From contig NC_009664.2 in assembly GCF_000017305.1 (NCBI RefSeq), positions 4,710,001 to 4,742,000 on the forward strand: 32,000 nt of DNA, given 5' to 3'. Positions 1-22,070 of this stretch are shown here, in pieces. The notes below the pieces were generated by a model. That model did no database searches. It had not been told where the DNA came from and saw nothing but the letters and a program-made list of their open reading frames with translations. Source of the DNA: Kineococcus radiotolerans SRS30216 = ATCC BAA-149. Lineage in GTDB: Bacteria; Actinomycetota; Actinomycetes; Actinomycetales; Kineococcaceae. The position numbers and the translations under genes were made by a program. Each line of letters starts with the position of its first letter. Positions within the stretch are counted from its first letter, which is position 1.

Positions 1-20
1 GGCGCTGGATGGGGTGAGGA

Positions 21-833
21 ATGAACCAGGACGACAGCTTCCAGCTGAGGGATCTGCTGGAGCAGGCCGGTGGCGCCGGGCTTTCGCAGGGTGAGGCCGA
101 GACCGTCTTCGCGCAGGCGTGGGCCCGGATCGAGGAGGGCATCGCTCGAGAGCCGGGCGACACGGCCGAGAAGTCGGCTTCTGCCCGGCGACTGGACGTC
201 CTGGCGCTGCAGCCGCAGCGTCGCCGCAGGAGGGCGCGGGCCATCGTCATCACGTCGGCGGTCCTGCTGGCCGGCGCGAGCAGCGCAGCGGCCGCGGAGT
301 ACATCGCCGCCCGCACCGGGCAGCACCTGAACGGCTGGGAGCTGGGCGCCGCGGGTCCGGGTGAGGTCCTCGACCAGGGCGGCAGCGACTACCGCCAGGT
401 CCTGGAGGACTCCGTTGCCGGCATCCCCTTCGCCCCCGGCTACGAGGCCCAGCGCGCTGACACCCTGACCCAGGGCATGCTCCAGGCAGAAGCGGGCTCT
501 CAGCTCACTGAGGGCGCGGCACGAGCGCAGTTTGCCCGCAACGCCTTGTGTACCTGGGCCGACGCCTGGGTCGTGGCCCAGGCCGCCGGGAACACCACCG
601 CACAGGCGCAGGCTGTCGCGACGCTGGCCGCGGCCCACGACTGGCCCGACGTCCAGGCCCTCGACGAGTACGGCCCCGCCACGAGCTTCGCGTGGCTCGC
701 ACCGCTGGAGAGCGCCGCCCGGGCGGGTGACCGCCAAGGCGTGCTGGACGCCGTCACCGACAGCAGCCGCTGCCGCCCCGACCTGGCTCCGGCCATCGCC
801 GCCGACCCCGCCTTCCAAGGCTTCAGCAGGTGA
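21..833 (+). CDS. Single-pass membrane protein, possible anti-sigma-type partner of the overlapping ECF sigma gene
   Basis: 270-aa ORF from ATG 21. Arg-rich QRRRRRAR is followed by one hydrophobic helix AIVITSAVLLAGASSAAAA. TGA 831-833 overlaps GTG 830 of the next ORF (GTGA coupling). Function is context inference only. Confidence 0.5.
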   Translation: MNQDDSFQLRDLLEQAGGAGLSQGEAETVFAQAWARIEEGIAREPGDTAEKSASARRLDVLALQPQRRRRRARAIVITSAVLLAGASSAAAAEYIAARTGQHLNGWELGAAGPGEVLDQGGSDYRQVLEDSVAGIPFAPGYEAQRADTLTQGMLQAEAGSQLTEGAARAQFARNALCTWADAWVVAQAAGNTTAQAQAVATLAAAHDWPDVQALDEYGPATSFAWLAPLESAARAGDRQGVLDAVTDSSRCRPDLAPAIAADPAFQGFSR

Positions 834-1375
834 GCTCCGTGCAGTCCGCCGCCACCGGTGAGGAGCTGGCGGCTTTCGAGCAGGTCTACCGCGACACCCG
901 CCAGGCGCTGCTGGCCTACCTGCACCGCCGCGCCCCCGCCGACGCCGCCGATCTGCTCGCCGAGGTCTACCTCGTGGCATGGCGGCGCCGTGACGTCCTC
1001 CCGGCCGGTGAGCAGCAGCGCCTGTGGCTGTACGGCATCGCCCGCCGCCTCCTGGCCGAGCACCACCGCACCCGGGCAGATCACGCTTCTCTCGACACCG
1101 TGGGTGAAGCCGTCTTAACCCCCTGGCGGGAGGGCCGCGACGGCGAGACGCCGAGGGCCGCGGCAGTGCGGCAGGTGCTGGCGGAGCTAAACGACACCGA
1201 CCGCGAACTGCTGACCCTGACCACCTGGGAGCACCTCAGCACCACCGACGCCGCCCACGTCGTTGGCATCACCGCCGGGTCGGCGCGTGTGCGCCTGCAC
1301 CGCGCCCGCCGCAAGCTCCGTGAGCATCCGAGCCTGCGCACCCTGCTCGACGAACCCTCACCCCATCTCGCCTGA
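830..1375 (+). CDS. ECF-type sigma-70 family RNA polymerase sigma factor
   Basis: 181-aa ORF with region-2-like DLLAEVYLVAWRRR and region-4 HTH LSTTDAAHVVGITAGSARVRLHRARRKL, the usual ECF sigma layout. Confidence 0.85.
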   Translation: MSSVQSAATGEELAAFEQVYRDTRQALLAYLHRRAPADAADLLAEVYLVAWRRRDVLPAGEQQRLWLYGIARRLLAEHHRTRADHASLDTVGEAVLTPWREGRDGETPRAAAVRQVLAELNDTDRELLTLTTWEHLSTTDAAHVVGITAGSARVRLHRARRKLREHPSLRTLLDEPSPHLA

Positions 1376-1410
1376 GCTCCGACGTCTACGCCGTGCACCA
1401 GTACGCGCTC

Positions 1411-1476
1411 CTCGCCAGAAGCGTGAAGTTGCCGGCCGCCGACGACCGTCCGCACCGCGGGATAACCGCGCAGTCG
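1411..1476 (+). repeat. Array repeat R1 (long form, degenerate core)
   Basis: ctcgccagaagcgtgaagttgccggccgcc...cgcaccgcGGGATAACCgcgcagtcg. The left arm is almost identical to that of R19. Confidence 0.7.
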
Positions 1477-1515
1477 AGCAAGCTGCGCCAGGGGCGTGGT
1501 GGCAGGCTTGGTGAC

Positions 1516-1809
1516 ATGGCACCCCTCGTCGAGACCAACGACGTCGTTGAGGCGTTGGAGTTGTACGACGGTGACGTGATCAAGCACCCCGTCACTGGGG
1601 CGGTCATGACGATTACCGCCCACATGCACCTGAACCCCCACTACCTCGACCTCATCCCGGGCATCGTCCGGTTCGACGTCTACAGCGGTCTCAACGTGGA
1701 GGGCCCGCTGGAGTGGGAGGGGCCCGAGGAGCAGTTGGTCATCGGTCCTGGCATGCGCATCCGCCGGCTGTACCAGTACACGCTGCCGCCGGGAACCCGC
1801 ATCAAGTGA
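1516..1809 (+). CDS. Hypothetical small protein
   Basis: 97 codons from ATG 1516. The six-frame ORF opens at 1393, but its first codons are repeat copy R1, so the internal ATG is preferred. No motif recognised. Confidence 0.45.
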   Translation: MAPLVETNDVVEALELYDGDVIKHPVTGAVMTITAHMHLNPHYLDLIPGIVRFDVYSGLNVEGPLEWEGPEEQLVIGPGMRIRRLYQYTLPPGTRIK

Positions 1810-1890
1810 CGCCTCACGTGGTGCAGGACCGGATGATCACACGACAGCGTCCGCTCGTGAACTGCGCCCGTCCGCTCGTCGGCGGCAGGT

Positions 1891-1970
1891 GCGGACGTCA
1901 CCGGATGTCCATGATCGTGCACCGCGGGATGACCGTGCACTTCGCGCGCACCGCGGGATGACCGTGCGTT
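1891..1970 (+). repeat. Array repeat R2 (degenerate left arm + two cores)
   Basis: GCACCGCGGGATGACCGTGC occurs at 1919-1938 and again at 1948-1967 (29-bp period). Confidence 0.85.
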
Positions 1971-2047
1971 CTGATTGAGGTGTCACAGAGAAGCGCCCGC
2001 CGGTTGAGGCGGAGGTCTTGAACCTGCAGCGCGGGTGGGGAGACGCT

Positions 2048-2437
2048 TTAGATCGCGGTGAGGAGGGTGAAGGCTCCCACCGCGGCGAGGAGGAGGATGG
2101 CCATGCCCACGACGAGGAGACTGCCCAGCAGGAGGCGCTCACGCCGGGACTCCTTGACCTCCTGCACCGGCTCAGGAGCCGGCAGCGGCTGCTGCAGCCA
2201 CTGAGCGGCATGGTCCTGGCTGCAGAAGATGCCGCCAAGGTAGTCGGTGAACGAGTGCTCTTCCCCGTCTGTTGCTGGTGTTGGTCGCGACACCTCGATA
2301 CCTAGCCAGGCCGTCTCTGAGACGGGTTGACCGCAGAGATCGCAGAGCGCCTGCTCATCGACAGGTGGCGAGGACTCTGGATGGTGCATGGCCATCGACG
2401 CTACCTGAGCTGCTCGAGGCGGGCTCTCAGTGGACAT
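2048..2437 (-). CDS. Hypothetical tail-anchored membrane protein with Cys/His pairs
   Basis: 129-aa ORF from ATG 2437. C-terminal hydrophobic helix LLLGSLLVVGMAILLLAAVGAFTLLTAI. CDLCG ... CSQDH suggests a small zinc-binding module. No family recognised. Confidence 0.55.
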   Translation of the reverse strand: MSTESPPRAAQVASMAMHHPESSPPVDEQALCDLCGQPVSETAWLGIEVSRPTPATDGEEHSFTDYLGGIFCSQDHAAQWLQQPLPAPEPVQEVKESRRERLLLGSLLVVGMAILLLAAVGAFTLLTAI

Positions 2438-2465
2438 CGGTTGCCATCCAGCGATGGCGCCTTTG

Positions 2466-2514
2466 CCGGCTGCGGGATGACCTTGAAGTCACGCACACCG
2501 CGGGATGACCGTGA
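2466..2514 (+). repeat. Array repeat R3, left part (two cores; second core cut by IS3 element)
   Basis: GGGATGACC at 2474 and 2502 (28-bp period). The second copy ends ...GACCGTGA at the IS boundary. Confidence 0.85.
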
Positions 2515-2556
2515 GGGTCTGCCCCTACTTCAGTTGACCCTCGTCAGTAGGGGCGG

Positions 2557-3429
2557 TCAGGCCGCGTGAGCGGCTTGCAGGAGTGTCTCGTACTCGATGG
2601 GTGTCAGTCGACCCAGCGCTTGCTGACGACGGCGGCGGTGATAGGTCCCCTCGATCCACGAGACGATGGCCAGGCGCAGCTCCTCCCGACTGGCCCAGCG
2701 CCGGCGGTTGAGGACGTTCTTCTGCAGCAGGCTGAAGAACGACTCCATGGCGGCGTTGTCCGCGCAGGTCCCGACCCGACCCATCGACCCACGCGCTTGC
2801 CCTGCCGAAAGAGCGCGAAGGTAGCGGTGGGAACGAAATTGGGCTCCGCGGTCCGAGTGGACCACGAGCTCAAGGACATCGGTCCCACCGCGCAGTGCCA
2901 GCGCGTTCGACAGGGCTTGGACGGCGAGGTCGGCAGTCATGCGGGCATCGATGGAGTAGCCGACGATGCGGTTGGAGCAGGCGTCCTTGACCGCGCAGAG
3001 GTAGAGCTTGCCTTCGGCGATGGGATGTTCGGTGATGTCGGTTAGCCAGAGGGCGTTCGGCTTCTCAGCGGTGAACTTACGGCGGACGAGGTCGTCGTGC
3101 ACGGGTGGTCCCGGCCGGCGCCCGGCGCCGCGTCTGCGGGCGTGGGCTGAGAACAGCTTCTGCAGGCTGCACAAGCGCTGGACGCGGTTGCGCGAGGTCC
3201 TGACGCCCTGCTGCTGCAGCTCGTCGGCGATGAAGCGGTAGCCGAACTCGGGGTCGTCGTGGTGGATGTCGACGGCGGCGTTGAGGAGGTGAGCGTCGTT
3301 CCAGTCCCGGTCGGTGACCGGAGCGGCGCGCCACTTGAAGTAAGCCTGCTTGGAGAAGCCCAGCACCCGACAGGTCACCGCGACGGGGATCCCGTCGCCG
3401 GCAAGGTCACGGACCAGCGGGTAGATCAT
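2557..3429 (-). CDS. IS3-family transposase OrfB (DDE / rve integrase core)
   Basis: 290 aa. Motifs LWLTDITE, VVHSDRGAQFRS and CADNAAMESFFSLLQ match the D, D, E regions of rve-domain IS3 transposases. It lies in the -1 frame relative to orfA, and its ATG overlaps the orfA stop. Confidence 0.9.
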   Translation of the reverse strand: MIYPLVRDLAGDGIPVAVTCRVLGFSKQAYFKWRAAPVTDRDWNDAHLLNAAVDIHHDDPEFGYRFIADELQQQGVRTSRNRVQRLCSLQKLFSAHARRRGAGRRPGPPVHDDLVRRKFTAEKPNALWLTDITEHPIAEGKLYLCAVKDACSNRIVGYSIDARMTADLAVQALSNALALRGGTDVLELVVHSDRGAQFRSHRYLRALSAGQARGSMGRVGTCADNAAMESFFSLLQKNVLNRRRWASREELRLAIVSWIEGTYHRRRRQQALGRLTPIEYETLLQAAHAA

Positions 3430-3734
3430 TTTGGCAACGTGTCACGGGCGAAGTACGCCGTCGCCCGCCGCAGGATCTCGTTCTCCTGCTCCAGCTGCTT
3501 GGCCCGCTTACGCAGCTCCCGGTTCTCCGCCTCGAGGTCCACGCCCACGGCAGGCGTGCTGTTGGACGCCGTCTTGCCGTCCTCGCGGTCAGCGATCCTC
3601 AGCCAGCGACCCAGGCAGGACTCGGAGATCCCGAAGCTGCTAGCGATCTTCGCTCGGGTCTGCCCGCCTTGGCGGGCGACGGCGATCACGTCGCGGCGGA
3701 ACTCGTCGGGGTAGCGCTTGTGCACGGTGCTCAT
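3426..3734 (-). CDS. IS3-family transposase OrfA (HTH)
   Basis: MSTVHKRYPDEFRRDVIAVARQGGQTRAKIASSFGISESCLGRWLR is a typical IS3/IS911 OrfA HTH N-terminus, with a coiled-coil-like C-terminus (ELRKRAKQLEQENEILRRA). The ORF stays open up to GTG 3761. Confidence 0.8.
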   Translation of the reverse strand: MSTVHKRYPDEFRRDVIAVARQGGQTRAKIASSFGISESCLGRWLRIADREDGKTASNSTPAVGVDLEAENRELRKRAKQLEQENEILRRATAYFARDTLPK

Positions 3735-3793
3735 CCTTCCAGCGAGGACCATGATCCTCACAGGTCGGAGTCAACCAAAGCGGGGGCAGACCC

Positions 3794-3805
3794 TGAAGTC
3801 GCTGG
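3794..3805 (+). repeat. Array repeat R3, right fragment after the IS
   Basis: TGAAGTCGCTGG. Joined to 2502-2511, it restores the consensus GGGATGACCGTGAAGTCG. Confidence 0.7.
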
Positions 3806-3842
3806 CGGTGGGTGAGGCTCGAATCGACATGCGATGGACACC

Positions 3843-4274
3843 TCAGTCGCTCCCGGCAGGGCTGGTCGAGGTAGATCGCAGGTGGATGAGTCCGGCTTCG
3901 GTGTGGGTGAAGCCGCAGGCGTCGAAGTAGAAGGGCGCCAGCTCGGGGCCGAAGTCGACGAACAGCCACTCACAACCGGCCGCGGCGGCGTTGAGCACCG
4001 CGACCCGCACCAGCTCCCGGCCGATGCCTCGGCGTTGGTGGCTGCCTCGGGTCTTGGTGTCGATGAGGAAGGCGTGATCCCCGCCGTCCCAGGCGACGTT
4101 GACGAAACCGACGAGCAGTCCGTCATGGTCGCGGGCGCTGCCCCAGCCCAGGCTGTGGTTACGGATCTGCGGCCACCACCCGGTGCTCGGGCGGCCTCCG
4201 TGGGAGAGGACCAGGTCCACCATCTCCTCGTCGGCGATGGGGGCTTTCCAGGAGTAGTCGATCCCGTTCGTCAT
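3843..4274 (-). CDS. GNAT-family N-acetyltransferase
   Basis: 143 codons from ATG 4274 (ORF open to TTG 4283). Acetyl-CoA binding motif HQRRGIGRELV (Q/R-x-x-G-x-G/A) and a beta-strand pattern typical of the GNAT fold. Confidence 0.8.
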   Translation of the reverse strand: MTNGIDYSWKAPIADEEMVDLVLSHGGRPSTGWWPQIRNHSLGWGSARDHDGLLVGFVNVAWDGGDHAFLIDTKTRGSHQRRGIGRELVRVAVLNAAAAGCEWLFVDFGPELAPFYFDACGFTHTEAGLIHLRSTSTSPAGSD

Positions 4275-4356
4275 GCAGGTCAACGTCGTGCATCAAGACG
4301 GGGGGGCCACTGCTTTGTCGGGGATCGCAGCTACCGGATGTGGTGATCTTGAGACC

Positions 4357-4423
4357 ATCGTCAAGACCGCGACGTCGCCGGCCGCCAGCGACAGCGCGCA
4401 CAACGCGGGATGACCGTGACGTC
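4357..4423 (+). repeat. Array repeat R4 (long form)
   Basis: atcgtcaagaccgcgacgtcgccggccgccagcgacagcgcgcacaacgcGGGATGACCgtgacgtc. It differs from R25 at only 3 positions/indels. Confidence 0.9.
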
Positions 4424-4488
4424 TCCCGTGTCCTCTCCTGGCTTTCCGAACTCCGCCCTCGGGAGCCTGCCAGTGCTTCACTGGTGGT

Positions 4489-4986
4489 GTGGCTACCGTG
4501 CGATCTGGCTGTCTGGCTCTCATGGCCGCTGTGGGGCTTTGGGCGGCTTCGGGTTGTTCCGACGATGCGCCGGCACCGACTGCGTCGTCGGCACCGACCA
4601 GCACAAGCCCGGCAGCGACGACTCCAGAGCAAAGCGCCACCGTCGAGACCCCCGCTTCTGAGGGAGCTCCGGCGGCGTTCCGGGAACGCTTTGCCCTCCC
4701 ACAGTGCGCCCCGATCACCGTCGACCAGGGGCGGGTCGATCCGGCGGCTCTGCAGGACTGCCTGCTCAGCTCCGACGCGCAGCGCGAGGGGGCTGAGGTC
4801 CTCGTGACGTCTAACACCGTGGAAGGGGACCCGATCAAGACGTACTACCGGGCGTTACCCGGTGAGGGCTTGGAGGTCTTTACCGACGCCACCGCGGACT
4901 CCTTCGGGTCGGAGGGATGGCGCCACGTGCGCTGTGTCGATGTCGCTGCTGCGGTGGAGAACCTGGACAGCTGCCAGGAGGCATGA
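4489..4986 (+). CDS. Putative lipoprotein
   Basis: 165-aa ORF from GTG 4489. Signal peptide with lipobox LWAASG/C (Cys23), followed by a Pro/Ala/Ser/Thr-rich linker. Confidence 0.6.
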   Translation: MATVRSGCLALMAAVGLWAASGCSDDAPAPTASSAPTSTSPAATTPEQSATVETPASEGAPAAFRERFALPQCAPITVDQGRVDPAALQDCLLSSDAQREGAEVLVTSNTVEGDPIKTYYRALPGEGLEVFTDATADSFGSEGWRHVRCVDVAAAVENLDSCQEA

Positions 4987-5000
4987 CCAGGGTCCACGAC

Positions 5001-5067
5001 ATCGGCACGACCGCGAGGTCCAGCCGGCTGTGGCCGCGCCCGTATCGCGGGATGACCGCGAACACGG
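5001..5067 (+). repeat. Array repeat R5 (long form)
   Basis: atcggcacgaccgcgaggtcc...cgtatcgcGGGATGACCgcgaacacgg, followed immediately by ATG 5068. Confidence 0.8.
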
Positions 5068-5733
5068 ATGGCGTTGTCCAGCGCTTACCCCGACGGCGAG
5101 ACTGCAAGGATGGCTCTCCCTGTGAGCGTGGCCGCCGCCTTGGCTGCGCTCGTTCCCCACGACGCGCTGAGCAACGCCTTCGGTGGACGCAGCCGGGACC
5201 CGGGCAGCTTGTCCTGGCGCCATGAGCTCATCGACGAACCGGAGGCGGCGAGGCTGCTGGGGGCTGCGGTGCCCGTCCTGCCCGCTCTCCGGGCGCCCGA
5301 GGTGGTGGAACGTGTCTCCGTCCACCGGGGCCTGCGCAGTGAGTCGCTGGAGTCTCAGCTCGCCGCGGGGTTCCTGCTGCTGCACCTGCGCGTCACCTAC
5401 CTGCCTGTGGACCAAGCTTGGGAGCAGGCGTTGACGTGGCCGGTCCTGCGCCGGGGTGGCTCGGTCCTGGACGTGCGGGAGCAGGACCCTGATCCGCAGC
5501 GGCGCCGGCCCTGGCCGCAGCGGGTGGCCAGCAGCCGCGACGCCGGCAGTGGGGACTACGCCGTGGTCACCGTGGAGGGGGTGGAGGTGGGGGTGCAGGT
5601 CGACACCTCTGGTGTGGTGCACCTGACGTGGCGGGTCTCGCGTGGGAGTCGGGTGCTGCTGGTGGGGTTGTTGACGCGTCGGGGTCCGCGGGCTGCGGTG
5701 GAGCTGGTCGCTGAGGGTGGATTGCTGACCTGA
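5068..5733 (+). CDS. Hypothetical protein
   Basis: 221-aa ORF. ATG 5068 directly follows repeat R5. The C-terminal block VTVEGVEVGVQVDTSGVVHLTW resembles the next ORF. Confidence 0.55.
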   Translation: MALSSAYPDGETARMALPVSVAAALAALVPHDALSNAFGGRSRDPGSLSWRHELIDEPEAARLLGAAVPVLPALRAPEVVERVSVHRGLRSESLESQLAAGFLLLHLRVTYLPVDQAWEQALTWPVLRRGGSVLDVREQDPDPQRRRPWPQRVASSRDAGSGDYAVVTVEGVEVGVQVDTSGVVHLTWRVSRGSRVLLVGLLTRRGPRAAVELVAEGGLLT

Positions 5734-5736
5734 TGG

Positions 5737-5787
5737 CTGCGGGGTGATCGAGACCCGCCCGGACTGCGGGATGACCGTGACGTCGCC
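5737..5787 (+). repeat. Array repeat R6 (degenerate core + core)
   Basis: gctgcggggtgatcgagacc, then ctgcGGGATGACCgtgacgtcgcc (core at 5768). Confidence 0.8.
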
Positions 5788-5799
5788 TCAGCAGGCACA

Positions 5800-6435
5800 G
5801 TGGTGACCGTGAGCGAATCGGTAGGGGTGGATTTCGGGCCACTGGACGCGCTGCCGTTGCCGCCGGGGCTGCAGGTGCTGCTGCGGTCCTTCCGGCCCGG
5901 CCACCCGCACACCCCGTCCCCGCCCGGCTCGCTGGCCCAGCTGTACCACCGTCATGACCGCGGACGAGCGGAGCAGACCTTGGGGTTCCCGCTGCCGAGG
6001 CTGTCAGCGTTGCTCGATGCCGGGCAGGTGGAGCTGGTGGCCACCGCGGGTGTCGCAGAGGTGGTCGCACCCGGGCAGAGGGGCGGGAGTGGTCCGGTGA
6101 CGGTGCTGTACCTGCCGGACGAGGACGTCCTGCAGTCGTCGCTCAGGGAAGCAGAGGGGCGTGGGTTGAGCACGGTCGAGGTGGACTACGGGGTGTCCTG
6201 GCCGTCGACGCCGCCGGAGACGCTGCGTTCACTGGGCAGCGGAGACGCCACGATGATCGATGTGCGCGGGCAGCACGTGGGGGTCCAGCACACGCGAACG
6301 GGACAGACCCGCCTGGCCTGGCAGCAACGTCTGGCTGAGGTGGAGTGCAACATCGCGGTGTACCTGCCTCATCCACCCCTGCAGGCGGTTGAACTCCTGG
6401 TGCGGTGCGATGTCCCGAGCGTGTCACGCCCTTGA
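5800..6435 (+). CDS. Hypothetical protein, distant paralogue of 5068..5733
   Basis: 211-aa ORF from GTG 5800. The C-terminal block IDVRGQHVGVQHTRTGQTRLAW and AVELLV echo the previous ORF. Its stop, TGA 6433-6435, lies at the edge of repeat R7. Confidence 0.55.
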   Translation: MVTVSESVGVDFGPLDALPLPPGLQVLLRSFRPGHPHTPSPPGSLAQLYHRHDRGRAEQTLGFPLPRLSALLDAGQVELVATAGVAEVVAPGQRGGSGPVTVLYLPDEDVLQSSLREAEGRGLSTVEVDYGVSWPSTPPETLRSLGSGDATMIDVRGQHVGVQHTRTGQTRLAWQQRLAEVECNIAVYLPHPPLQAVELLVRCDVPSVSRP

Positions 6436-6470: not shown

Positions 6471-6475
6471 TCGTC

Positions 6476-15518: not shown

Positions 15519-15571
15519 TGACCCACGTGCCGCCGTCACTTCGACGGTGCAGCCGGCCCGGTCACAAGTGT

Positions 15572-15913: not shown

Positions 15914-15953
15914 CCGCAACGGTCTCAAGCTCGTGGCGTCAACGCAGCCGTCT

Positions 15954-16029
15954 CGCGGAATTCGACACGACCGCGAGTCACGACCGCCCCGGATCGCGCA
16001 CTGAGCGCGGGATGACCGTGAAGTCGTTG
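15954..16029 (+). repeat. Array repeat R21 (long form, GAATTCGACAC subfamily)
   Basis: cgcggaattcgacacgaccgcgagtcacgaccgccccggatcgcgcactgagcgcGGGATGACCgtgaagtcgttg. Confidence 0.85.
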
Positions 16030-16041
16030 AACTCTGGAGGA

Positions 16042-16454
16042 TCAGCGTGAGCGACGCCGATGCAGCCACCGACTGATCCGAGGGCCCCATCGCGACTCCT
16101 GACGAGCGCGTTGGGCAGCGAGCTCGGCGTTGACGAAGGCGTCGATGGCGGCCTGATTGGCGTCGGCCAGCTGAGGGCGCGTCTGCGCCAGGCGCGCTCT
16201 CAGCCCGGGCAGGTCGTAGAGGCCGGTAGGAGTGAACGCCACCCGCTCGTCCGCGCGGTGGACCTCTTGGACCTCGATGTGCAAGACCTCCGCGTCCTGG
16301 CTCCAAGCAACCTTCCCGTAGACGCCGTCAGTGACGTCGATAGCTTCCATCCAGGCCGCGGCGTCGGAGGGTCGGCAAAGACGAGGGGCTCACGGGTCTC
16401 GTCGAAGACGATGATGGCCCGGGCTGCTGGCGTCACCTGTTCATACTTGCTCAC
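16042..16454 (-). pseudogene. Hypothetical gene split by an apparent 1-nt frameshift
   Basis: ORF 16200..16454 (VSKYEQVTPAARAIIVFDETREPLVFADP...) and ORF 16042..16350 (MEAIDVTDGVYGKVAWSQDAEV...) overlap. The second frame is already open and sensible upstream (PSDAAAW-MEAID), so a 1-nt indel near 16363-16373 joins them into one about 137-aa protein. Confidence 0.45.
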
Positions 16455-16477
16455 GCGTCCGAGGCTGGAGTGCCGTT

Positions 16478-16509
16478 TCGCACGGACGGCGGGATGACCG
16501 GGAGGTCGT
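16478..16509 (+). repeat. Array repeat R22 (short form)
   Basis: tcgcacggacggcGGGATGACCgggaggtcg. Confidence 0.7.
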
Positions 16510-16574
16510 GACCTGAGTCCACATCTGTTCCACGACGTCAGTGCACGAACGGTAGTGTCCGTCGCGCGGTGGGC

Positions 16575-17051
16575 TCATCCACCTGCGCAGGTAGCAGCGG
16601 CGGCCGGGCTAGCGTCCCAGTAGTCGAACTGGTCAACGACATACTTGCCGTCATCGGTGGTGCTCATGTGGACGGCGGCGATGCGGGTGCCGCTCTCATC
16701 CAGTGCTTCGGTCTTGGTGGGGGATGCGAGCAGGGCCTCGATGGCGGCCAGGCGAGCTTCAGCGCCAGCAATTGCTTCGTCTCGTGCTGGTCCGCTGGGC
16801 TGGGTGCAGGTCTGCTCCAGGTAGGCCGTCTCCAGGTCTCGGTTCTCGATCAGCCAGTCCTCGACGCCGGTCACCGTCGTCGGACTGTTGTAGGCCGCGC
16901 CCATGAGGCACCCGGAGCTCGCATTGACCGCTGGCTGCTGGGTTGCGGCCTGCTCCGGAGGCGCGGAGCAGGCGGTGAGCAGGCCGGCGAAAACGGCCAG
17001 GCCGACACCAGTGTGCGCGGGCCGGCTCATGGCGCGTGGGGTAGTCCTCAT
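16575..17051 (-). CDS. Putative lipoprotein
   Basis: 158 aa from ATG 17051. MRTTPRAMSRPAHTGVGLAVFAGLLTA/C carries lipobox LLTAC. The longer six-frame ORF reads through repeat R23. Confidence 0.6.
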   Translation of the reverse strand: MRTTPRAMSRPAHTGVGLAVFAGLLTACSAPPEQAATQQPAVNASSGCLMGAAYNSPTTVTGVEDWLIENRDLETAYLEQTCTQPSGPARDEAIAGAEARLAAIEALLASPTKTEALDESGTRIAAVHMSTTDDGKYVVDQFDYWDASPAAAATCAGG

Positions 17052-17186
17052 ATCGACTCCGACGTGGCTAAGGAGCGGACGGCTCCCTCTGAGACAGGGG
17101 AGAACGAGAGCGTCACCCATGTGGATGCAGGGGGTGACTTCTTGACTGGTTGGCGGGTCGTTCACTCGGCCCGTGGACGTCACAAC

Positions 17187-17256
17187 ATCGACAAGGCCGT
17201 GACGTCGCGGGCCCCGGCGACAGCGCGCACAACGCGGGATGACCGGGAAGTCATGG
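17187..17256 (+). repeat. Array repeat R23 (long form)
   Basis: atcgacaaggccgtgacgtcgcgggccccggcgacagcgcgcacaacgcGGGATGACCgggaagtcatgg. Confidence 0.85.
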
Positions 17257-17431
17257 ACCCGCTCTGACCTGGGCGCCCACACCCGGTTCCCGACCACTCA
17301 CGATGGCGCCACGGGCGAGCGAGGGGTCTTCGATCTCGGCTGCTCCAGGCGATGGCACGTGGCGCCTGTCGCGGCGATGGCCAGCTCAGGGTGCGGTAGG
17401 AAGGGAGGGGGCTTAGAGGCCGCCCGTACCT

Positions 17432-17854
17432 ATGAGAGGAGTGCTTGCAAGGATGGCGATTCTGATGGTGGGCGTCGCTCAGCTGCCTCGTCACCTTGAG
17501 AAGAAGATCACGCCCAAGAACAAGCGGACACGACCGCCAGGTCGCATTCGCAAGCAGGTGATCCACGAAGAGGTGGACAACGCAGGCACTGACGACGGTC
17601 TGGCTACCTTCATTGAGCACTTCCGGCAGTGGCCTGCGGGAGTGGATCTTGGGGAGGTGCTCAGCTGGAACCCCTATGGGGCGACCCGGGTGTATGCGCC
17701 GGCTTCGCCGGAGGTTCTCCGGTTGCGGCAGGAGTTTGAGGCGGCTGTTCGTGTCGCACCTGCGGGCGTCATGCGGGAAGCCGTGGTGCGCGCGCTTGAG
17801 GTCGTCGAAGAGTGCCAGCGCAACGACTACTTCCTGCTCGTCTATCCCGACTGA
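17432..17854 (+). CDS. Hypothetical protein
   Basis: 140-aa ORF from ATG 17432. The Lys/Arg-rich N-terminal third has locally lower GC (about 57% in line 17461-17520). No family recognised. Confidence 0.5.
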   Translation: MRGVLARMAILMVGVAQLPRHLEKKITPKNKRTRPPGRIRKQVIHEEVDNAGTDDGLATFIEHFRQWPAGVDLGEVLSWNPYGATRVYAPASPEVLRLRQEFEAAVRVAPAGVMREAVVRALEVVEECQRNDYFLLVYPD

Positions 17855-17990
17855 TCATTGCAGGAGTGGGTGGAAGCCGCTCACATCCGGTGGGTCTTGT
17901 TCGTCAGCGCTGGCCCGGCAGGCGGGTTGCGGCTGGCTCACCAAGGTGCAGCAAGACGCACGGTTAGCGGTGATCATCACGATCCACGAT

Positions 17991-18069
17991 CGCGCGGAAT
18001 TCGACACGACCGCGGCGTTGCGGGCCGCCGGCGACAGCGCGCACAACGCGGGATGACCGTGAAGCCGAC
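17991..18069 (+). repeat. Array repeat R24 (long form, GAATTCGACAC subfamily)
   Basis: cgcgcggaattcgacacgaccgcggcgttgcgggccgccggcgacagcgcgcacaacgcGGGATGACCgtgaagccgac. Confidence 0.9.
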
Positions 18070-18176
18070 AACCTATCCAAGCGGCTGGTCAAGCAGGCGC
18101 CGATGAGTGGGTGCTGCTCCTGCAGCAGGGTGGCCTGCGGTGAACAATGGACACGGCTGCAGCGCCGCGGTAAGGG

Positions 18177-18362
18177 CTAGGGATCGGCTGGCAGGTGAGC
18201 TCTCCCGGGGAAGTGGTGCCGGGTCCGGCGGTGGTAAGAGCCGATGGTGTCGAGGTGTTTGGTGAGTCCTACGACTGATGCCGCAGTATGGATGACGGTT
18301 GCATCGGATCGCCCCCACTTGGTTGGGGCATGGCTGATGCCCGACCGCCCGTGCTCATCCAC
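18177..18362 (-). pseudogene. Possible remnant of an IS3-family transposase C-terminus
   Basis: The 61-aa ORF ends ...LDTIGSYHRRTRHHFPGRAHLPADP. This resembles the OrfB C-terminus of the intact IS in this window (WIEGTYHRRRRQQALGRLTPIEY). The upstream part is poorly alignable. Weak call. Confidence 0.3.
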
Positions 18363-18783
18363 CGTTGTTCGAGCCGGTCGACTTCACCGTCTGCCCCCGC
18401 CGTGATCGGCGGAGCGCAACGACGGAACACGTCAGGCCGGTGAGGAACGTGACGACGGCAAACGCGTTGGCCGCTACGACCATGAAGCCGAGGAGGATGA
18501 TCACGCCGAGGTTGTAGGACACCGCGTACCCCACGAGCCAGGCGACGGGCACGGAGCCGAGCAGCGTCACGGTGGCCATGAACGATACGTGCGCGACCAG
18601 GGCGGCTACGGGTCGTCGATCGGACCGGCGGATCAGTCTCAGCATGGCTACGATCCCGACGATCGAGGCGACCGCCACAGCGATCTGAGCGGGATAGGTG
18701 GCCGAGTAGTCGATCTGGCCTTCGTTAAGACTCAAGGGAGTCATTCGAAGATCATAAAGAGGGCTCACAGGCTGGACGTACAC
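18355..18783 (-). CDS. Integral membrane protein (about 4 TM helices)
   Basis: 142-aa ORF from GTG 18783, with AGGAG 5 nt upstream (18789-18793 on the - strand). Four long hydrophobic segments. Last gene of the sigma operon. Confidence 0.65.
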   Translation of the reverse strand: MYVQPVSPLYDLRMTPLSLNEGQIDYSATYPAQIAVAVASIVGIVAMLRLIRRSDRRPVAALVAHVSFMATVTLLGSVPVAWLVGYAVSYNLGVIILLGFMVVAANAFAVVTFLTGLTCSVVALRRSRRGQTVKSTGSNNGG

Positions 18784-19384
18784 GTAGGCTCCTGCGGCGG
18801 GAACGATCAGGCGGGCTGAGGCTCAGACCGGCTGAGCATGATCCACGCGACTGGACCACCCGATCTTGCTGCTCGGGTCGCAGGGGTTGAGTTTTCCGCC
18901 GGTCGCGCAGGTGATCCAGGTCCTCCACGCCGGCGGTGAGCAGGGCCGCGGGCTCACCGGAGCGGGCAGTGGCTGCCCCGGTGGTGGGCGCGGTCAGGGA
19001 TGCGCTCACGATGAGGTCTCTCACCCGAGCTGAGCCGGGGAGGTAGGACGGTGGCCCGCCGAGGTCGGCGGTCACCGCCCAGGACTGGTCCGCGCCGGGG
19101 GCGGTGAGGTTCACCGGCATCAGGTCCCTGGTCATCCTGCACGTCAGGGGACCGCTGGTGGCGGCGGCGTCGAACGTCGCCGCTTCGGTACCGGCCGGCC
19201 ATCCGGTGAACTGGAGGGTGACGGCGTCCTGGGTTGAGGTCTCCTCGGTCCACTGGAACGCGCGCCCGGCCACGCTGTACCCGGCCACGCTGTACTCGGC
19301 CACGTCGAGCAGATCAGCAGAGCCCCCAGCGCACCCCACCGGCGAAGCAAGAACGCCCCGTCGGGGTCCGCGGGTGTCGCTCAT
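18752..19384 (-). CDS. Hypothetical protein, paralogue of the C-terminal domain of the adjacent anti-sigma-like protein
   Basis: 210 aa. ATG 19384 overlaps the upstream stop (ATGA). GRAFQW...FDAAATSGPLTCR...APGADQSWAVTAD...GSARVRDLIV aligns with GRQITWW...FDALVANTGVCRF...VAGADQTWAAHTD...GAARVGDLIV of 19381..20454. Confidence 0.6.
   Translation of the reverse strand: MSDTRGPRRGVLASPVGCAGGSADLLDVAEYSVAGYSVAGRAFQWTEETSTQDAVTLQFTGWPAGTEAATFDAAATSGPLTCRMTRDLMPVNLTAPGADQSWAVTADLGGPPSYLPGSARVRDLIVSASLTAPTTGAATARSGEPAALLTAGVEDLDHLRDRRKTQPLRPEQQDRVVQSRGSCSAGLSLSPPDRSRRRSLRVRPACEPSL
18789..18793 (-). promoter_or_regulatory. Shine-Dalgarno AGGAG for the 18783 start
   Basis: The reverse complement of CTCCT at 18789-18793 is AGGAG, 5 nt upstream of GTG 18783. 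Confidence 0.5.
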
Positions 19385-20454
19385 CGTCCTTCGGCGGCCG
19401 GGAGCCCGCTGGCACGCAGGTCAGCGACCGCGGCCGTCAGCAAGGTGGTCAGTTCGCTGACCGCGTCCTGCGCGGGGTGCAGCACGGTGATGCCGACGAT
19501 GAGGTCCCCGACGCGGGCGGCGCCGGAGACGAAGGGCAGTCCGTTGCTGTCGGTGTGCGCGGCCCAGGTCTGGTCGGCTCCGGCGACGGTGATGGCGAAG
19601 GGTGTGGTCGGGTCGGTGAACCGGCAGACACCGGTGTTGGCGACGAGGGCGTCGAAGGCGATCGGTCCCCCGCCGGTGGCCCGGCCGGTGACGACCAGGT
19701 CCACGCTGGCCTGGTTCGGCCAGCGCTGGATCTCGTTCCACCAGGTGATTTGCCGCCCGGCCACCATCGGTGGGTCGAAGGGCCGTGAACTGCAGGCCTG
19801 CCCCATCACCGTCGGGCTCTTGGGGTACTGCCCGCGGTCGCCGAGGACCACTAGTCCGGCAGGCAGGGCTGCCCGGGTCCGTGTCATGTCGGGGATGTCG
19901 TAGGCGACGGGGACGTCCGGGTTGGCCAGCCCCACCGAGGAACCGGCTGTCGAGTCGACCGAAGGGGTGCTGGCTGGTGACTTGCTGAGGGTGGAAGTCC
20001 CCGCCGCCGTCTGCGCCGGAGTCTGCGCCGCGGTTGGTGCCGGGGTCTGGGTCGGGGTTCCGGTAGGTGTGGGCGTCAGCGAGGCCGCCGGGACGGTGCG
20101 CACGCTGGGCTCGGCGCTCCAGTGCAACCCTAGGGGGAGGGCGATGACAGCGGCCAGGGTGAAGGCGCCTGCGACGGCACGGGTGCGTCGGCGGTGCTGG
20201 ATGCGTCGGCGCAGCTGGTGGCGGGTGCCGGCGTGCAGGCTGGCCTCGTCAATGCGGCCGGCGTGGAGCTCCTCGTGCAGGGCGCTCTGCAGGTGGTGCT
20301 GCAGCTGGAGTAGGTCGTCGAGGTCAGCAAGCTCATCGTGGTCGGTGTCGGGGCGGTCGGTGTCGGCGCGGTCGGTGTTGGGGCGGTCGGTGTCGAGGTG
20401 GTCGGCGTCGTCCTCGCCGGGGGTGGGGTGCTGGTCACGAGGTCGCTGGGTCAT
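19381..20454 (-). CDS. Membrane protein, putative anti-sigma factor with extracytoplasmic domain
   Basis: 357 aa. Its start overlaps the ECF sigma stop by 4 nt. Acidic N-terminus with DTDRP-type pentapeptide repeats, one TM helix AVAGAFTLAAVIALPLGL, a Thr/Pro linker, and a C-terminal domain duplicated in the next gene. Confidence 0.65.
   Translation of the reverse strand: MTQRPRDQHPTPGEDDADHLDTDRPNTDRADTDRPDTDHDELADLDDLLQLQHHLQSALHEELHAGRIDEASLHAGTRHQLRRRIQHRRRTRAVAGAFTLAAVIALPLGLHWSAEPSVRTVPAASLTPTPTGTPTQTPAPTAAQTPAQTAAGTSTLSKSPASTPSVDSTAGSSVGLANPDVPVAYDIPDMTRTRAALPAGLVVLGDRGQYPKSPTVMGQACSSRPFDPPMVAGRQITWWNEIQRWPNQASVDLVVTGRATGGGPIAFDALVANTGVCRFTDPTTPFAITVAGADQTWAAHTDSNGLPFVSGAARVGDLIVGITVLHPAQDAVSELTTLLTAAVADLRASGLPAAEGR
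20341..20410. repeat. 15-bp tandem repeat (about 4.5 units) inside the CDS
   Basis: GTCGGTGTCGGGGCG / GTCGGTGTCGGCGCG / GTCGGTGTTGGGGCG / GTCGGTGTCGAGGTG / GTCGGCGTCG. On the - strand this encodes HLDTDRPNTDRADTDRPDTDH. Confidence 0.8.
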
Positions 20455-21020
20455 CGGGACTCCTTCGCGGCGTCGGTGTTGTGGTCCAGGAGGCGACGCA
20501 GGTTGCGCAGGCCGCGGTAGGCGTGGCTGCGGACGGTGGCTTGGGAGCAGTGCAGGAGGTTGGCGATCTCGGCGTCGGGCAGGCCTTCGTACAGGCGCAG
20601 GACGAGGGTGGCCCGTTGCGCGTCGGGTAGGCGGCGCAGCAACGTGAGGTAGTGCTGCCGGTCGCCGTAGCCGGCGCTGTCATCGAGGAGGGGAGCATCG
20701 GGCAGGTCGGCGGGGTCGCTGACCTGCTCGCGGCGCCAGGGGCGGCGGTGGTGGGAGACGACGGCGTTGACGACCATGCGGTTCAAGTAGGCCGAGGGGT
20801 CTTCGACGGCCTGGATGCGTGACCACTTCAGGACGCAGCGGGCCAGGACGTCCTGGACGACGTCCTCAGCTTGGTGGGGGTCTTTGAGCAGGCCGCGGGC
20901 GAGGCGGACCATCTCGGGGCCCTTCCAGGTGACCAGGGAGTCCAGGTCCCAGACCCCGGCTTGTGCCGGTTCAGGGCGCGAGGAGGCGTCGGCTCCGGCG
21001 GGACCTTGCGAACGTCTCAC
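20451..21020 (-). CDS. ECF-type sigma-70 family sigma factor (SigE-like subgroup)
   Basis: 189 aa from GTG 21020. Region 2 is AEDVVQDVLARCVLKW and region 4 is LPDAQRATLVLRLYEGLPDAEIANLLHCSQATVRSHAYRGLRNLR. Confidence 0.85.
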   Translation of the reverse strand: MRRSQGPAGADASSRPEPAQAGVWDLDSLVTWKGPEMVRLARGLLKDPHQAEDVVQDVLARCVLKWSRIQAVEDPSAYLNRMVVNAVVSHHRRPWRREQVSDPADLPDAPLLDDSAGYGDRQHYLTLLRRLPDAQRATLVLRLYEGLPDAEIANLLHCSQATVRSHAYRGLRNLRRLLDHNTDAAKESR

Positions 21021-21113
21021 ACTCTCCTAACGCTGCCCGGAAGCGGGCTGTTGCGGTTGGAAGGACTTCGTTTTGACGTCACTTCCGCTGTCGACTTCCG
21101 GCACCCCTGGGTC

Positions 21114-21182
21114 ATCGACAAGACCGCGACGTCGCCGGCCGCCAGCGACAGCGCACAACGCGGGATGACCGTGAAGTCGTAG
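21114..21182 (+). repeat. Array repeat R25 (long form; last clear copy)
   Basis: atcgacaagaccgcgacgtcgccggccgccagcgacagcgcacaacgcGGGATGACCgtgaagtcgtag. Confidence 0.9.
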
Positions 21183-21183
21183 A

Positions 21184-21241
21184 CCGGACGTGACCGCGCC
21201 CGGACGTGACCGCGCCCGGACGCGACCAGGCCGGACGTCGC
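21184..21241. repeat. 16-bp tandem repeat (about 3.5 units) immediately after R25
   Basis: CCGGACGTGACCGCGC (21184-21199) and CCGGACGTGACCGCGC (21200-21215), then CCGGACGCGACCAGG and CCGGACGTCGC. It shares TGACCGCG/GACGT with the repeat box. Confidence 0.8.
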
Positions 21242-21263
21242 TCCTCGCTCCGCCGCCTGGCTC

Positions 21264-21845
21264 TCAGCTGCCGTCTGGCTGGCAGAAGCGCAGGACGTTG
21301 CCGTAGGGGTCGATGACCTCCATGGTTGGCCCGCCGGGGAACTCGAGGTCCACGCCTGGTCGCAAGGGCGCGGCGGAGTGGGAGTGCAGCTCCGTGTGCA
21401 GGGCGTGGACGTCGGCCACCGCGATCCACACGACGCCGTGAGGACTGCCGTCACCGTGGTGCTCGGACAGGTGCAGGACCATCTGCCCGCGCGAGACCTG
21501 CACGTACAGCGGGAAGCCGGCCTCGAAGCGGTGTTCCCAGTCCAGGGTGAAGCCGAGGTAGTCCCGGTAGAAGCCCAACGCCACCTCCGCGGACATCACC
21601 CGCAGCACCGGGACGCCGGGGGCGAACGCCGGCGCCTGCGCGGGCGGCTGCACGGGTGCGGGCGCGGCCGCAGTGTGCGCGCCTGCCGTGGCGGCGAGGG
21701 TGTTCCAGTCCCGGGCGCCGTGCTGGTGGGCGATGAGTTCCAGCGCCAGGGAGTGGGGGACGTCGATGCCGGCGGCGGCCAGGTCGCTGCGCAGCAGCTT
21801 GGCCAGGTCCTTGGCACGGGCAACAGGGGTTGGGGGCGGGGTCAT
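21264..21845 (-). CDS. Glyoxalase/bleomycin-resistance superfamily protein with N-terminal helical domain
   Basis: 193 aa from ATG 21845. The N-terminus AKDLAKLLRSDLAAAGIDVPHSLALELIAHQHGARDWNTL is followed by a VOC domain: PVLRVMSAEVALGFYRDYLGFTLDWEHRF...YVQVSRGQMVLHLSEHHGD...MEVIDPYGNVLRF. Confidence 0.8.
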   Translation of the reverse strand: MTPPPTPVARAKDLAKLLRSDLAAAGIDVPHSLALELIAHQHGARDWNTLAATAGAHTAAAPAPVQPPAQAPAFAPGVPVLRVMSAEVALGFYRDYLGFTLDWEHRFEAGFPLYVQVSRGQMVLHLSEHHGDGSPHGVVWIAVADVHALHTELHSHSAAPLRPGVDLEFPGGPTMEVIDPYGNVLRFCQPDGS

Positions 21846-22020
21846 GGTGCGCCTTCCTGCGCGGCAGGTGCTGTGCCGGGTGCTCGCGTTGCCGGCTGCT
21901 GCCGCGTCCGGGAAGCCGCGGGAGGCTGGACCCAGCGGTGCATTCACCAGACCACCGAGGGGGCGCGAGCGGCAGGCTGCACCGAGCCACCAGCAGGGTA
22001 GCCACCGCCGCTGCGCCTGC

Positions 22021-22070
22021 CCAGATCGACGACCGCACAACATCCGCAGATCGACATGACCGCAAAATTG
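22021..22070 (+). repeat. Possible degenerate terminal copy of the array repeat (R26)
   Basis: ccagatcgacgaccgcacaacatccgcagatcgacATGACCGCaaaattg. It keeps ATCGAC-GACCGC, GCACAAC and ATGACCG in the right order, but the GCGGG core is lost. Confidence 0.3.

Follow-up and report, generated by a model that had tools for sequence, protein, structure and literature searches.

The described systems closest to the one reported here are pdif modules, accreted integrative elements, recombinase-associated defence arrays and integrons. In the pdif modules of Acinetobacter plasmids, ~28-bp XerC/XerD sites occur in alternating inverted orientation and are served by the host XerC/XerD. In the ICESt1/cis-mobilizable element (CIME) model, integrative elements accrete in tandem at att sites, with the integrase provided in cis or in trans. 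The recombinase-associated interbacterial defence arrays (rAID-1), which Ross et al. are said to have described in Nature in 2019, reportedly occur in Bacteroidales. Here, we analyze a 32,000-nt stretch of Kineococcus radiotolerans SRS30216 (contig NC_009664.2, positions 4,710,001 to 4,742,000; hereafter, the window), of which positions 1-22062 are cut into gene units by a short, co-oriented repeat. An initial annotation of the window had proposed a recombinase-serviced cassette array built on a site other than attC, and comparative evidence now supports that proposal. Specifically, we consider it probable, from genome comparison, that this region is part of a chromosomal mobile-cassette array, a double-strand, site-specific platform with a Xer-like recombinase as its putative catalyst.

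The repeat centers on a 9-mer, GGGATGACC, that has 26 exact copies in the window, from position 1926 to 21170, every one of them on the + strand. In 100 dinucleotide-preserving shuffles the mean was 0.35 copies and the maximum two, and exact searching of the window returned none on the - strand and none past 21170, so that the count given at the outset (26 copies, + strand only, far above chance) stands. One-mismatch versions of the 9-mer number 11 on the + strand and six on the - strand. Alignment of their contexts identified those at 1459, 11911 and 11937 as true sites and that at 8813 as a possible one, the others being chance matches; of the roughly seven one-mismatch copies first claimed, these are retained and the rest are dropped. 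A profile built from the core recovered 31 sites in the window, all on the + strand, with a shortened long form (14250-14307) and a hybrid terminal site (22026-22062) as additions to the matches of the 9-mer.

Across 312 Kineococcus sites, the conserved block spans ~29 bp, GCGCGCACCGC-GGGATGACC-GTGAnGTCG (the core can also be written GCGCACmrCGC-GGGATGACC-GTGAnGTCG), with background composition on both sides, and it holds an invariant block of 12 bp, GCGGGATGACCG. About half of the sites in the window, and 23% of all Kineococcus sites, have a long form, in which the core is preceded, at a distance of 45-47 bp, by an upstream box, GACCGYGAnGTCG, that directly repeats the right part of the core; a small GTCGC...GCGAC stem lies between the two. 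The context alignment thereby confirmed both the flanking conservation and the long-form consensus read initially. When six sites were folded as DNA on both strands, z-scores against shuffles ran from -1.7 to +0.4, with no significant hairpin, and a site acting as a single-strand hairpin, whether like attC or like a repetitive extragenic palindromic (REP) sequence, is ruled out because it folds no better than its shuffles. Searches of the window against Rfam (gathering thresholds) and with a tRNA scan gave no matches; its guanine-plus-cytosine (GC) content is 64-74%.

An exact scan for GCGGGATGACCGTGAnGTCG, with one genome per species, returned at least 120 stretches (L-numbers below denote the loci retrieved). 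Among the matches listed, 63 of 120 come from Kineococcus, from at least 15 species and with many contigs per draft genome, and the stretches outside the genus are single hits in unrelated taxa; the exact form of the site is, among these matches, specific to Kineococcus. The profile found 343 sites in the 63 Kineococcus loci, 328 of which (96%) share the majority orientation of their locus, and these form local arrays with sites 0.3-2 kb apart in DNA of 67-73% GC. On the complete chromosome of Kineococcus sp. DHX-1, the matches listed place sites in three of five consecutive 8-kb blocks of the stretch 2.160-2.200 Mb and again at 4.704-4.712 Mb; since they fall in two stretches, the copies among them are clustered rather than evenly spread. 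The two contrary outcomes that the initial annotation had named, namely a genome-wide spread in both orientations and fully conserved unit synteny, are not what the loci show: among the matches listed, the copies are clustered and locally co-oriented, and the synteny of units is not conserved. Many array contigs are only 1-5 kb long in assemblies; the repeats fragment short-read assemblies, and the system is therefore probably under-represented in current genome analyses.

Evidence for a cassette array comes from the units themselves. Single units of the window have counterparts in other Kineococcus genomes at 84-91% identity, with the edges of the match at sites and with unrelated neighbors on both sides. 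Unit 4417-5058, for example, is 84% identical over its whole length to a unit on NODE_4 of Kineococcus sp. SYSU DK001 that has unrelated neighbors, unit 10448-11192 recurs in K. halophytocola (84%) and in Kineococcus sp. DHX-1 (90%) next to unrelated upstream DNA, and unit 11947-12620 is 86% identical to a unit of SYSU DK002. The last cassette of the window, 21172-22062, is 89-91% identical to an internal unit of the array on NODE_6 of SYSU DK001, and the 24 kb of that array have at most three of their ~20 units in common with the window. Within DHX-1, a 430-bp cassette is 95% identical between the 2.19-Mb and 4.70-Mb arrays, 2.5 Mb apart, bounded exactly at the cores and flanked by unrelated DNA, and another cassette is duplicated within one array. 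Over all Kineococcus loci (8 kb each) plus the window, we collected inter-genome homologies of at least 250 bp; none of the 121 resulting segments exceeds 1.4 kb, 117 keep their orientation relative to the site, and 35% of the segment ends have a site within 40 bp, versus 5% of random points. The comparison among related genomes that had been suggested as a check thus finds units shared singly, among unrelated neighbors and with breakpoints inside the core, which indicates, as far as genome sequence can, that units move individually at the site.

The breakpoints further localize the exchange. In the 34 pairs that share the left cassette, identity stays above the site-to-site baseline through position -3 and is at baseline from +10, and the 52 pairs that share the right cassette show the mirror image. 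It follows from these mirrored patterns that the switch lies inside the invariant GCGGGATGACCG, that the left arm, including the long form, travels with the left cassette, and that GTGAnGTCG travels with the right one. The overlap region of a tyrosine recombinase requires an invariant exchange block, and we infer that GCGGGATGACCG is such a region. At the right end of the array, the window reads ...GACATGACCG/CAAAATTG and SYSU DK001 reads ...GCCCTGACCG/TGACGTCG followed by further cassettes; the hybrid terminal site diverges from its SYSU DK001 counterpart directly after GACCG.

These breakpoints also bear on the possibility that the repeat acts as a fixed signal, regulatory or architectural (a terminator, an insulator, a nucleoid-protein site or a promoter for extracytoplasmic function (ECF) sigma factors) with no part in gene movement. 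Such a signal would likewise be an intergenic, directional and strongly conserved repeat, and three ECF sigma genes lie in the window. We regard it as highly improbable, given that the orientation of the site is independent of gene strand, that Rfam gave no match and no stable stem is followed by a run of T, and that it leaves unexplained the occurrence of cassettes in differing contexts, the breakpoints in the core and the core-bounded duplicates.

Clustering of all open reading frames (ORFs) of the Kineococcus loci revealed three recurrent families: an IS110 transposase, a 455-aa protein and a tyrosine recombinase of ~310 aa. The recombinase is present once per locus in six Kineococcus (DHX-1, vitellinus, TRM81007, DK001, where it is truncated, DK019 and endophyticus), always within the array and always antisense to the sites. 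Its gene is 83-90% identical at the DNA level between species, while the DNA on both sides differs, and its stop codon directly adjoins a conserved, core-like box, gTCATCGnCAGATGAGTGAAGTCGG. The protein (301-330 aa) consists of the Pfam domains Phage_integrase and a SAM-like N-terminal domain. Xer models score it at 116-126 bits against cutoffs of 279-335 (330-335 for the XerC/XerD equivalogs), and models of the integron integrase at 53.5 bits against a cutoff of 265 (TIGR02249) and at 25 against 435 (PRK15417). The closest solved structure is E. coli XerD (1A0P), and no IntI structure was matched at E<=1e-5. The recombinase is colinear with XerD, all six catalytic residues (R-K-H-R-H-Y) align, the IntI-type insertion is lacking, and the protein has the features of a simple (Xer-like) tyrosine recombinase, with no arm-binding domain. 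A search of 72,556 plasmids returned no close homologue (best, 40%), and a location on plasmids was accordingly rejected. Among phage proteins, its nearest relatives are the simple integrases encoded by Arthrobacter and Gordonia phages (45% identity). The initial annotation had placed the servicing recombinase outside the window; a Xer-like gene is indeed found in the six Kineococcus arrays, and its association with them suggests, at the strength of an association, that it services them.

A divergent classical integron, or an integrase-less cluster of attC sites (CALIN), with attC too atypical to be recognized by eye, would share the co-oriented single-gene units, the site belonging to the 5'-side cassette, the integron-type cargo and an insertion sequence (IS) lodged inside a site, as IS1111-attC elements are. 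This explanation is effectively refuted. We found no RYYYAAC...GTTRRRY pair on either strand of 1-22070, with GTTRRRY near two of the 31 sites; the sites fold no better than shuffles on either strand; the boxes of the long form are direct rather than inverted repeats; the recombinase falls far below the integron-integrase cutoff, is colinear with XerD and lacks the IntI insertion; and genes face the two ways 50/50. Further, Cury et al. found every Actinobacteria genome that they analyzed to be without complete integrons (PMC4889954). The early reading that the lack of attC core sites sets the array apart from classical integrons is therefore upheld by the core-pair search, the folds and the integrase score.

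Beyond Kineococcus, homologues of the recombinase with 70-83% amino acid identity occur in Cellulomonas, Motilibacter, Jatrophihabitans, Actinomadura and Spirillospora and on many contigs from soil metagenomes, in which its relatives are abundant. Related cores, GCGGCATG(A/T)..., adjoin these homologues in the loci fetched, which include a metagenome-assembled genome (MAG), and lie mostly on the strand opposite to the recombinase (9 opposite versus 2 on the same strand in Cellulomonas, and 12 versus 3 in Motilibacter). In five of the six non-Kineococcus loci, a core precedes the recombinase start by 46-111 bp and is antisense to the gene. Jatrophihabitans cassettes have their own long form with an equivalent logic of box 1 and box 2, and the same box abuts the recombinase stop codon. 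Genes neighboring the recombinase in these genera include toxin-antitoxin pairs, SMI1_KNR4 and Imm8 immunity proteins, glyoxalases, ECF sigma factors and IS110. The toxin-antitoxin pairs (PhdYeFM/ParE; ribbon-helix-helix plus partner) adjoin the recombinase gene in Cellulomonas and Motilibacter (L122 11055-11578, L123 11028-11542 and L128 4861-5450). In Actinomadura geliboluensis (L129), two tyrosine recombinase genes (7342-8253 and 10001-10927) lie 1.7 kb apart on the same strand.

The pairing of recombinase and core weighs on another explanation, in which the repeat is a selfish or neutral intergenic element of the REP or miniature inverted-repeat transposable element (MITE) kind, the mosaicism results from homologous recombination between its copies, and the recombinase is an unrelated passenger. 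Short, intergenic, highly abundant and, among the matches listed, confined in its exact form to one genus, the repeat has the bearing of such elements; repeat-only tandem duplications exist, the window is without a recombinase, and 30 bp of identity could allow some RecA-dependent exchange. A 96% local co-orientation is, however, unlike that of REPs, bacterial interspersed mosaic elements (BIMEs) or REP doublets forming hairpins (REPINs), the sites form no significant hairpin, and the recurrent families include no gene of the REP-associated tyrosine transposase (RAYT, HUH) type. Moreover, the left arm is specific to its cassette and travels with it, and recombinase and core have stayed paired in six actinobacterial genera whose core variants differ. 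We therefore hold this explanation to be unlikely.

The arrays might alternatively reflect no dedicated platform at all, with tiny integrative elements having inserted beside existing att sites and accreted in tandem, like CIMEs beside integrative and conjugative elements (ICEs) or like satellites, by means of an integrase from one resident element or prophage. Every unit is indeed flanked by direct-repeat att sites and carries its cargo in either direction, the recombinase is bracketed by sites as if it were one more element, and its nearest phage relatives are the simple Arthrobacter and Gordonia integrases noted above. Yet the units are small (0.3-1.3 kb), hold one gene and lack mobility or replication functions, they number dozens per array with several arrays per genome, we saw neither phage nor conjugation genes in the arrays, and each locus has a single copy of the recombinase, whose conservation between species is 83-90% amid variable surroundings. 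Accretion thus appears quite unlikely; it overlaps mechanistically with the cassette platform that we favor, the chief difference being whether the array is a selected platform.

IS110 transposases were rejected as the servicing enzyme, and we treat them as intruders because their positions and copy numbers in the arrays vary; members of this RNA-guided family occur in Kineococcus arrays (L006, L056, L067, L087 and L106) and in other genera (L122 2002-3240 and 6143-7213; three copies in L128; L129 20514-20927). The 455-aa family is found in arrays of five Kineococcus genomes (L070 2503-3870, L009, L046, L068 and L083), has no match in Pfam, NCBIfam, PADLOC or PDB sequences, in one case lies just one unit from the recombinase, and is treated as cargo.

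In sequence, a cassette consists of one gene or small operon, in either orientation; it starts directly after the GCGGGATGACCG of one site, with (G)TGAnGTCG, and ends with its own, partly cassette-specific left arm (the long form in about half) plus the next GCGGGATGACCG. Under the cassette-platform model, the ~310-aa Xer-like recombinase, encoded elsewhere in such arrays, would bind the ~29-bp duplex core and exchange strands within GCGGGATGACCG, such that recombination between two co-oriented sites could excise a cassette as a circle and the reverse reaction could insert the circle at another site. Over time, cassettes would be shuffled, duplicated and replaced between arrays and, after horizontal transfer, between genomes. 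The upstream box might serve as an accessory or second binding site, and the degenerate box at the recombinase stop codon may guard that gene against excision. With orientation fixed relative to the site only, genes could face either way and would need their own expression signals. Binding, cleavage in GCGGGATGACCG, circle excision and reinsertion by the recombinase are steps that we infer from its association with the sites.

Several points weigh against this model. Neither the window nor the 690 bp that precede it contain a site-specific recombinase; the early statement that the window holds no recombinase is right in that sense, and needs amending in that an IS3 transposase is present at 2515-3792. 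The loci were picked for containing the site or the recombinase, so that their association is not unbiased, and the genome-wide density of sites and the number of arrays rest on lower-bound counts only. Unlike in the intI/attI arrangement, the recombinase gene is flanked by sites on both sides, which would allow its own excision, and the dyad symmetry of the core is weak. No excised circles and no empty sites were observed. The Spirillospora, Actinomadura and MAG loci have few cores only, and Jatrophihabitans has sites in both orientations. Finally, the empty tandem mini-units of 26-34 bp, including 17 in Motilibacter, fall outside the model's account. These runs are seen in Kineococcus as four or five copies of 26-29 bp (L081 6595-6676 and L091 847-957) and, in Motilibacter peucedani, as 17 tandem copies of a 34-bp empty unit (L123 14954-15551); three 28-bp copies lie directly upstream of the Motilibacter recombinase gene.

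Weighing these points, we lean, by a modest degree, toward the broader proposition that Actinomycetota carry an independently evolved and widespread analogue of the integron, in which a highly conserved Xer-like recombinase (70-83% identity across orders) acting on a duplex ~29-bp core captures, excises and shuffles single-gene cassettes. Such cassettes would bear a part-site with an optional second core-like box and need no common promoter, and Kineococcus would represent an expansion, with several arrays per genome and dozens to hundreds of cassettes.

In the window, the array (1-22062) comprises about 26 gene-bearing units and five empty mini-units of 26-29 bp that are tandem duplications of the site alone. 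The initial reading of the site-delimited units needs amending in that five of them are such empty duplications. Gene-bearing units are 337-1905 bp long, with a 3.1-kb operon unit as the one exception. Genes, called by GC content at third codon positions (GC3) and Pfam, divide into about 12 on the + strand and 12 on the - strand, much as the first reading had it despite the co-oriented repeat. From left to right, the features are as follows (all sites on the + strand).

1-1404, + strand: leftmost unit, starting before position 1; ORF 21-833 (270 aa) coupled to ECF sigma 830-1375
1405-1476, + strand: site 1, long form with degenerate core GGGATAACC, profile 20.1 bits; right end of the leftmost unit
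1477-1913, + strand: unit with ORF 1393-1809; as the maximal ORF overlaps site 1, its real start probably lies downstream of the site
1914-1972, + strand: sites 2 and 3 (cores 1926 and 1955), a tandem pair around an empty 29-bp mini-unit
1973-2461, - strand: unit with ORF 2048-2437 (129 aa, no Pfam match)
2462-2514, + strand: sites 4 and 5 (cores 2474 and 2502) with a 28-bp mini-unit; the IS3 element splits site 5 directly after GGGATGACCG-TGA
2515-3792, - strand: IS3-family element (orfB 2557-3429, orfA 3426-3761) inside a core site; an intruder, not cargo
3793-4416, - strand: cassette with a GNAT acetyltransferase (3843-4283), ending in long-form site 6 (4352-4424, core 4407); 80% match to Kineococcus locus L053, polarity kept
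4417-5058, + strand: cassette with weak ORF 4489-4986, ending in long-form site 7 (core 5049)
5059-5777, + strand: cassette with ORF 5068-5733 (221 aa, no Pfam match; family recurs in L098 and L113), ending in site 8 (core 5768)
5778-6462, + strand: cassette with ORF 5800-6435 (211 aa; family recurs in L038 and L039), ending in site 9 (core 6453)
6463-6909, + strand: cassette with ORF 6476-6805 (109 aa), ending in site 10 (core 6900, partial long form)
6910-8508, - strand: two-gene cassette, ORF 7097-7792 and ECF sigma 7789-8568 with a 4-nt overlap; site 11 (core 8499)
8509-8845, + strand: 337-bp unit without a convincing ORF, ending in site 12 (core 8836)
8846-9969, - strand: cassette with a leucine-rich-repeat (LRR) protein (8889-9863), ending in long-form site 13 (core 9960)
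9970-10447, + strand: unit with weak ORF 10023-10379, then sites 14 and 15 (cores 10412 and 10438) around a 26-bp mini-unit
10448-11192, + strand: cassette with ORF 10492-11148 (218 aa), ending in site 16 (core 11183)
11193-11946, - strand: cassette with a Glyoxalase_6 gene (11279-11713), then long-form site 17, a 26-bp mini-unit and site 18
11911, + strand: site 17, GAGATGACC, long form
11937, + strand: site 18, GGGATGAGC
11947-12646, - strand: cassette with a WapI-like immunity domain (about 12013-12493), then sites 19 and 20 (cores 12611 and 12637) with a 26-bp mini-unit
12647-13022, + strand: 376-bp unit without a confirmed gene, ending in site 21 (core 13013)
13023-13825, + strand: cassette with ORF 13207-13755 (182 aa), ending in site 22 (core 13816, variant long form)
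13826-14307, + strand: cassette with an ABM monooxygenase-like gene (13819-14229), its ATG within the core
14250-14307, + strand: shortened long-form site, ...GCGCACAACGCGGGATG/TGCGG, at the end of the ABM cassette
14308-14944, - strand: cassette with a GNAT gene (14330-14929), ending in long-form site 24 (core 14935)
14945-15507, - strand: cassette with ORF 14975-15448 (157 aa), ending in site 25 (core 15498)
15508-16018, + strand: unit with short weak ORFs only, possibly decayed, ending in long-form site 26 (core 16009)
16019-16500, - strand: cassette with ORF 16042-16350 (102 aa), ending in site 27 (core 16491)
16501-17245, - strand: unit with weak ORF 16575-17297, ending in long-form site 28 (core 17236)
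17246-18059, + strand: unit with weak ORF 17432-17854, ending in long-form site 29 (core 18050)
18060-21171, - strand: 3.1-kb operon cassette, ECF sigma 20451-21020, then 19381-20454, 18752-19384 and 18355-18783, overlapping
Core 21162, + strand: long-form site 30, end of the 3.1-kb operon cassette
21172-22062, - strand: last cassette, with a Glyoxalase_7/8 gene (21264-22043), ending in the hybrid terminal site
22026-22062, + strand: hybrid terminal site, ...ATCGACGACCGCACAACATCCGCAGATCGACATGACCG/CAAAATTG, right boundary of the array
22165-23133, - strand: right flank, NERD-domain protein
23229-25028, + strand: SIR2-like protein (PADLOC candidate PDC-S65, E 1.7e-141)
25165-30414, - strand: AAA/STAND-like ATPase of 1749 aa with weak Avs4/PDC-M54A similarity

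Pfam assigns the cargo to three ECF sigma factors, two GNATs, two or three glyoxalase/VOC proteins (Glyoxalase_6, Glyoxalase_7/8), an ABM-domain protein, an LRR protein and one WapI-like immunity domain, in line with the accessory-type cargo (ECF sigma, GNAT, VOC, ABM, LRR and immunity-like genes) recognized at first sight. Two of the three ECF sigma factors are in an operon with a partner of no known family, and many cargo ORFs are without a family assignment. In other Kineococcus genomes, an APH-family phosphotransferase cassette recurs at 86-94% identity in three genomes (L078 4890-5834 in Kineococcus sp. DHX-1, L053 and L108) and is possibly antibiotic-modifying cargo. Taken over the arrays examined, a cargo of GNAT, VOC, immunity, toxin-antitoxin and APH genes is what cassette banks typically carry. 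The ATG of the core and the CAT of the long form were rejected as general start codons, only a few ORFs fitting. That ATG, lying within GGGATGACC, opens an ORF in three units (at 4410, 13819 and 17239, as in the ABM gene), so that the site may supply the start codon of some + strand cassettes.

The IS3 element is inserted exactly into a core, as its terminal inverted repeats (GGGTCTGCCCC) and the 3-bp TGA duplication show the junctions to be GGGATGACCG-TGA/IS/TGA-AGTCG. Its end matches locus L102 at 93%, it is the single case of an IS3 in a core that we saw, and it parallels the IS elements that target integron attC sites. To the left, a 3.2-kb Logan contig identical to the start of the window carries a further site ~80-130 bp upstream of position 1 and itself begins inside yet another, which substantiates the early suspicion that the array continues upstream of position 1. 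To the right, beyond 22062, lie NERD, SIR2, STAND-type ATPase, DUF3560 and RDD genes; these include no recombinase, and the right flank was rejected as the recombinase/attI side. Together, 22165-30414 forms a defence-island-like block directly right of the array.

If the model is right, a non-homologous system in the same role would account for the missing complete integrons of Actinobacteria (PMC4889954), and cassette platforms would have arisen at least twice from Xer-like recombinases, once on folded single-strand sites and once on ordinary duplex sites. The recombinase together with the GCGGSATG core gives a searchable signature for mining the unannotated accessory genes of soil actinobacteria, a large pool that includes acetyltransferases, VOC/bleomycin-type proteins, phosphotransferases, immunity proteins and toxin-antitoxin pairs, and so compact a pair of recombinase and site could serve the engineering of high-GC Gram-positive bacteria. 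We found no description of the repeat or the system in the literature, in a search that was incomplete and leaves an earlier description possible.

Compared with REPs, BIMEs and REPINs, the site is similarly short, abundant, intergenic and lineage-specific; REPs differ in being palindromic, typically in inverted pairs, genome-wide and linked to HUH (RAYT) proteins, none of which applies to the loci covered here. With pdif modules, the arrays share small accessory-gene modules that are bounded by ~28-bp Xer-type sites and found in various contexts, but here all sites are direct, arrays lie on the chromosome, and the system has a third Xer-like recombinase that would be dedicated to it. CIME accretion likewise involves co-oriented att sites that bound recombinase-less units, excisable singly or together, whereas the units here are 10-100 times smaller, far more numerous, without transfer functions and spread over several arrays per genome. 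By description only, rAID-1 is alike in combining a tyrosine recombinase with small accessory genes between conserved repeats, and one WapI-like immunity cassette occurs here; the cargo here nevertheless appears broad rather than mainly orphan immunity (one WapI-like domain in ~26 cassettes, with SMI1_KNR4 and Imm8 in related loci), and phylum, repeat and recombinase lineage differ.

The likeness to integrons extends to long arrays of mostly single-gene units with co-oriented recombination sites between them, a site that belongs to the 5'-side cassette with the crossover at its 3' end, cassettes that are shared, duplicated and reshuffled, a tyrosine recombinase, extra arrays without one, a cargo rich in GNAT, VOC, toxin-antitoxin and immunity genes, and IS elements in sites. 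The core upstream of the recombinase start in five of six other-genus loci holds the position of attI, and the recombinase-adjacent toxin-antitoxin pairs of Cellulomonas and Motilibacter recall the stabilizing toxin-antitoxin cassettes of chromosomal integrons. Unlike in integrons, the recombinase is of the Xer-like kind, not IntI, and has no IntI-specific insertion; the place of a folded, variable attC is taken by a conserved ~29-bp core of double-strand type with an invariant 12-bp block; sites lie on either side of the recombinase gene; and the hosts belong to Actinomycetota. With genes in both directions, a common promoter logic is lacking, and promoterless cassettes co-oriented with a cassette promoter (Pc) next to attI were not found, with ~12 genes on the + and 12 on the - strand and no attI or integrase in the window. 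Hence, the arrays are best described as a putative cassette platform that is site-specific but differs in the type of its site and in having a recombinase of non-homologous lineage, one that would function like an integron while standing apart from integrons in its integrase, its sites and its lack of a common promoter.

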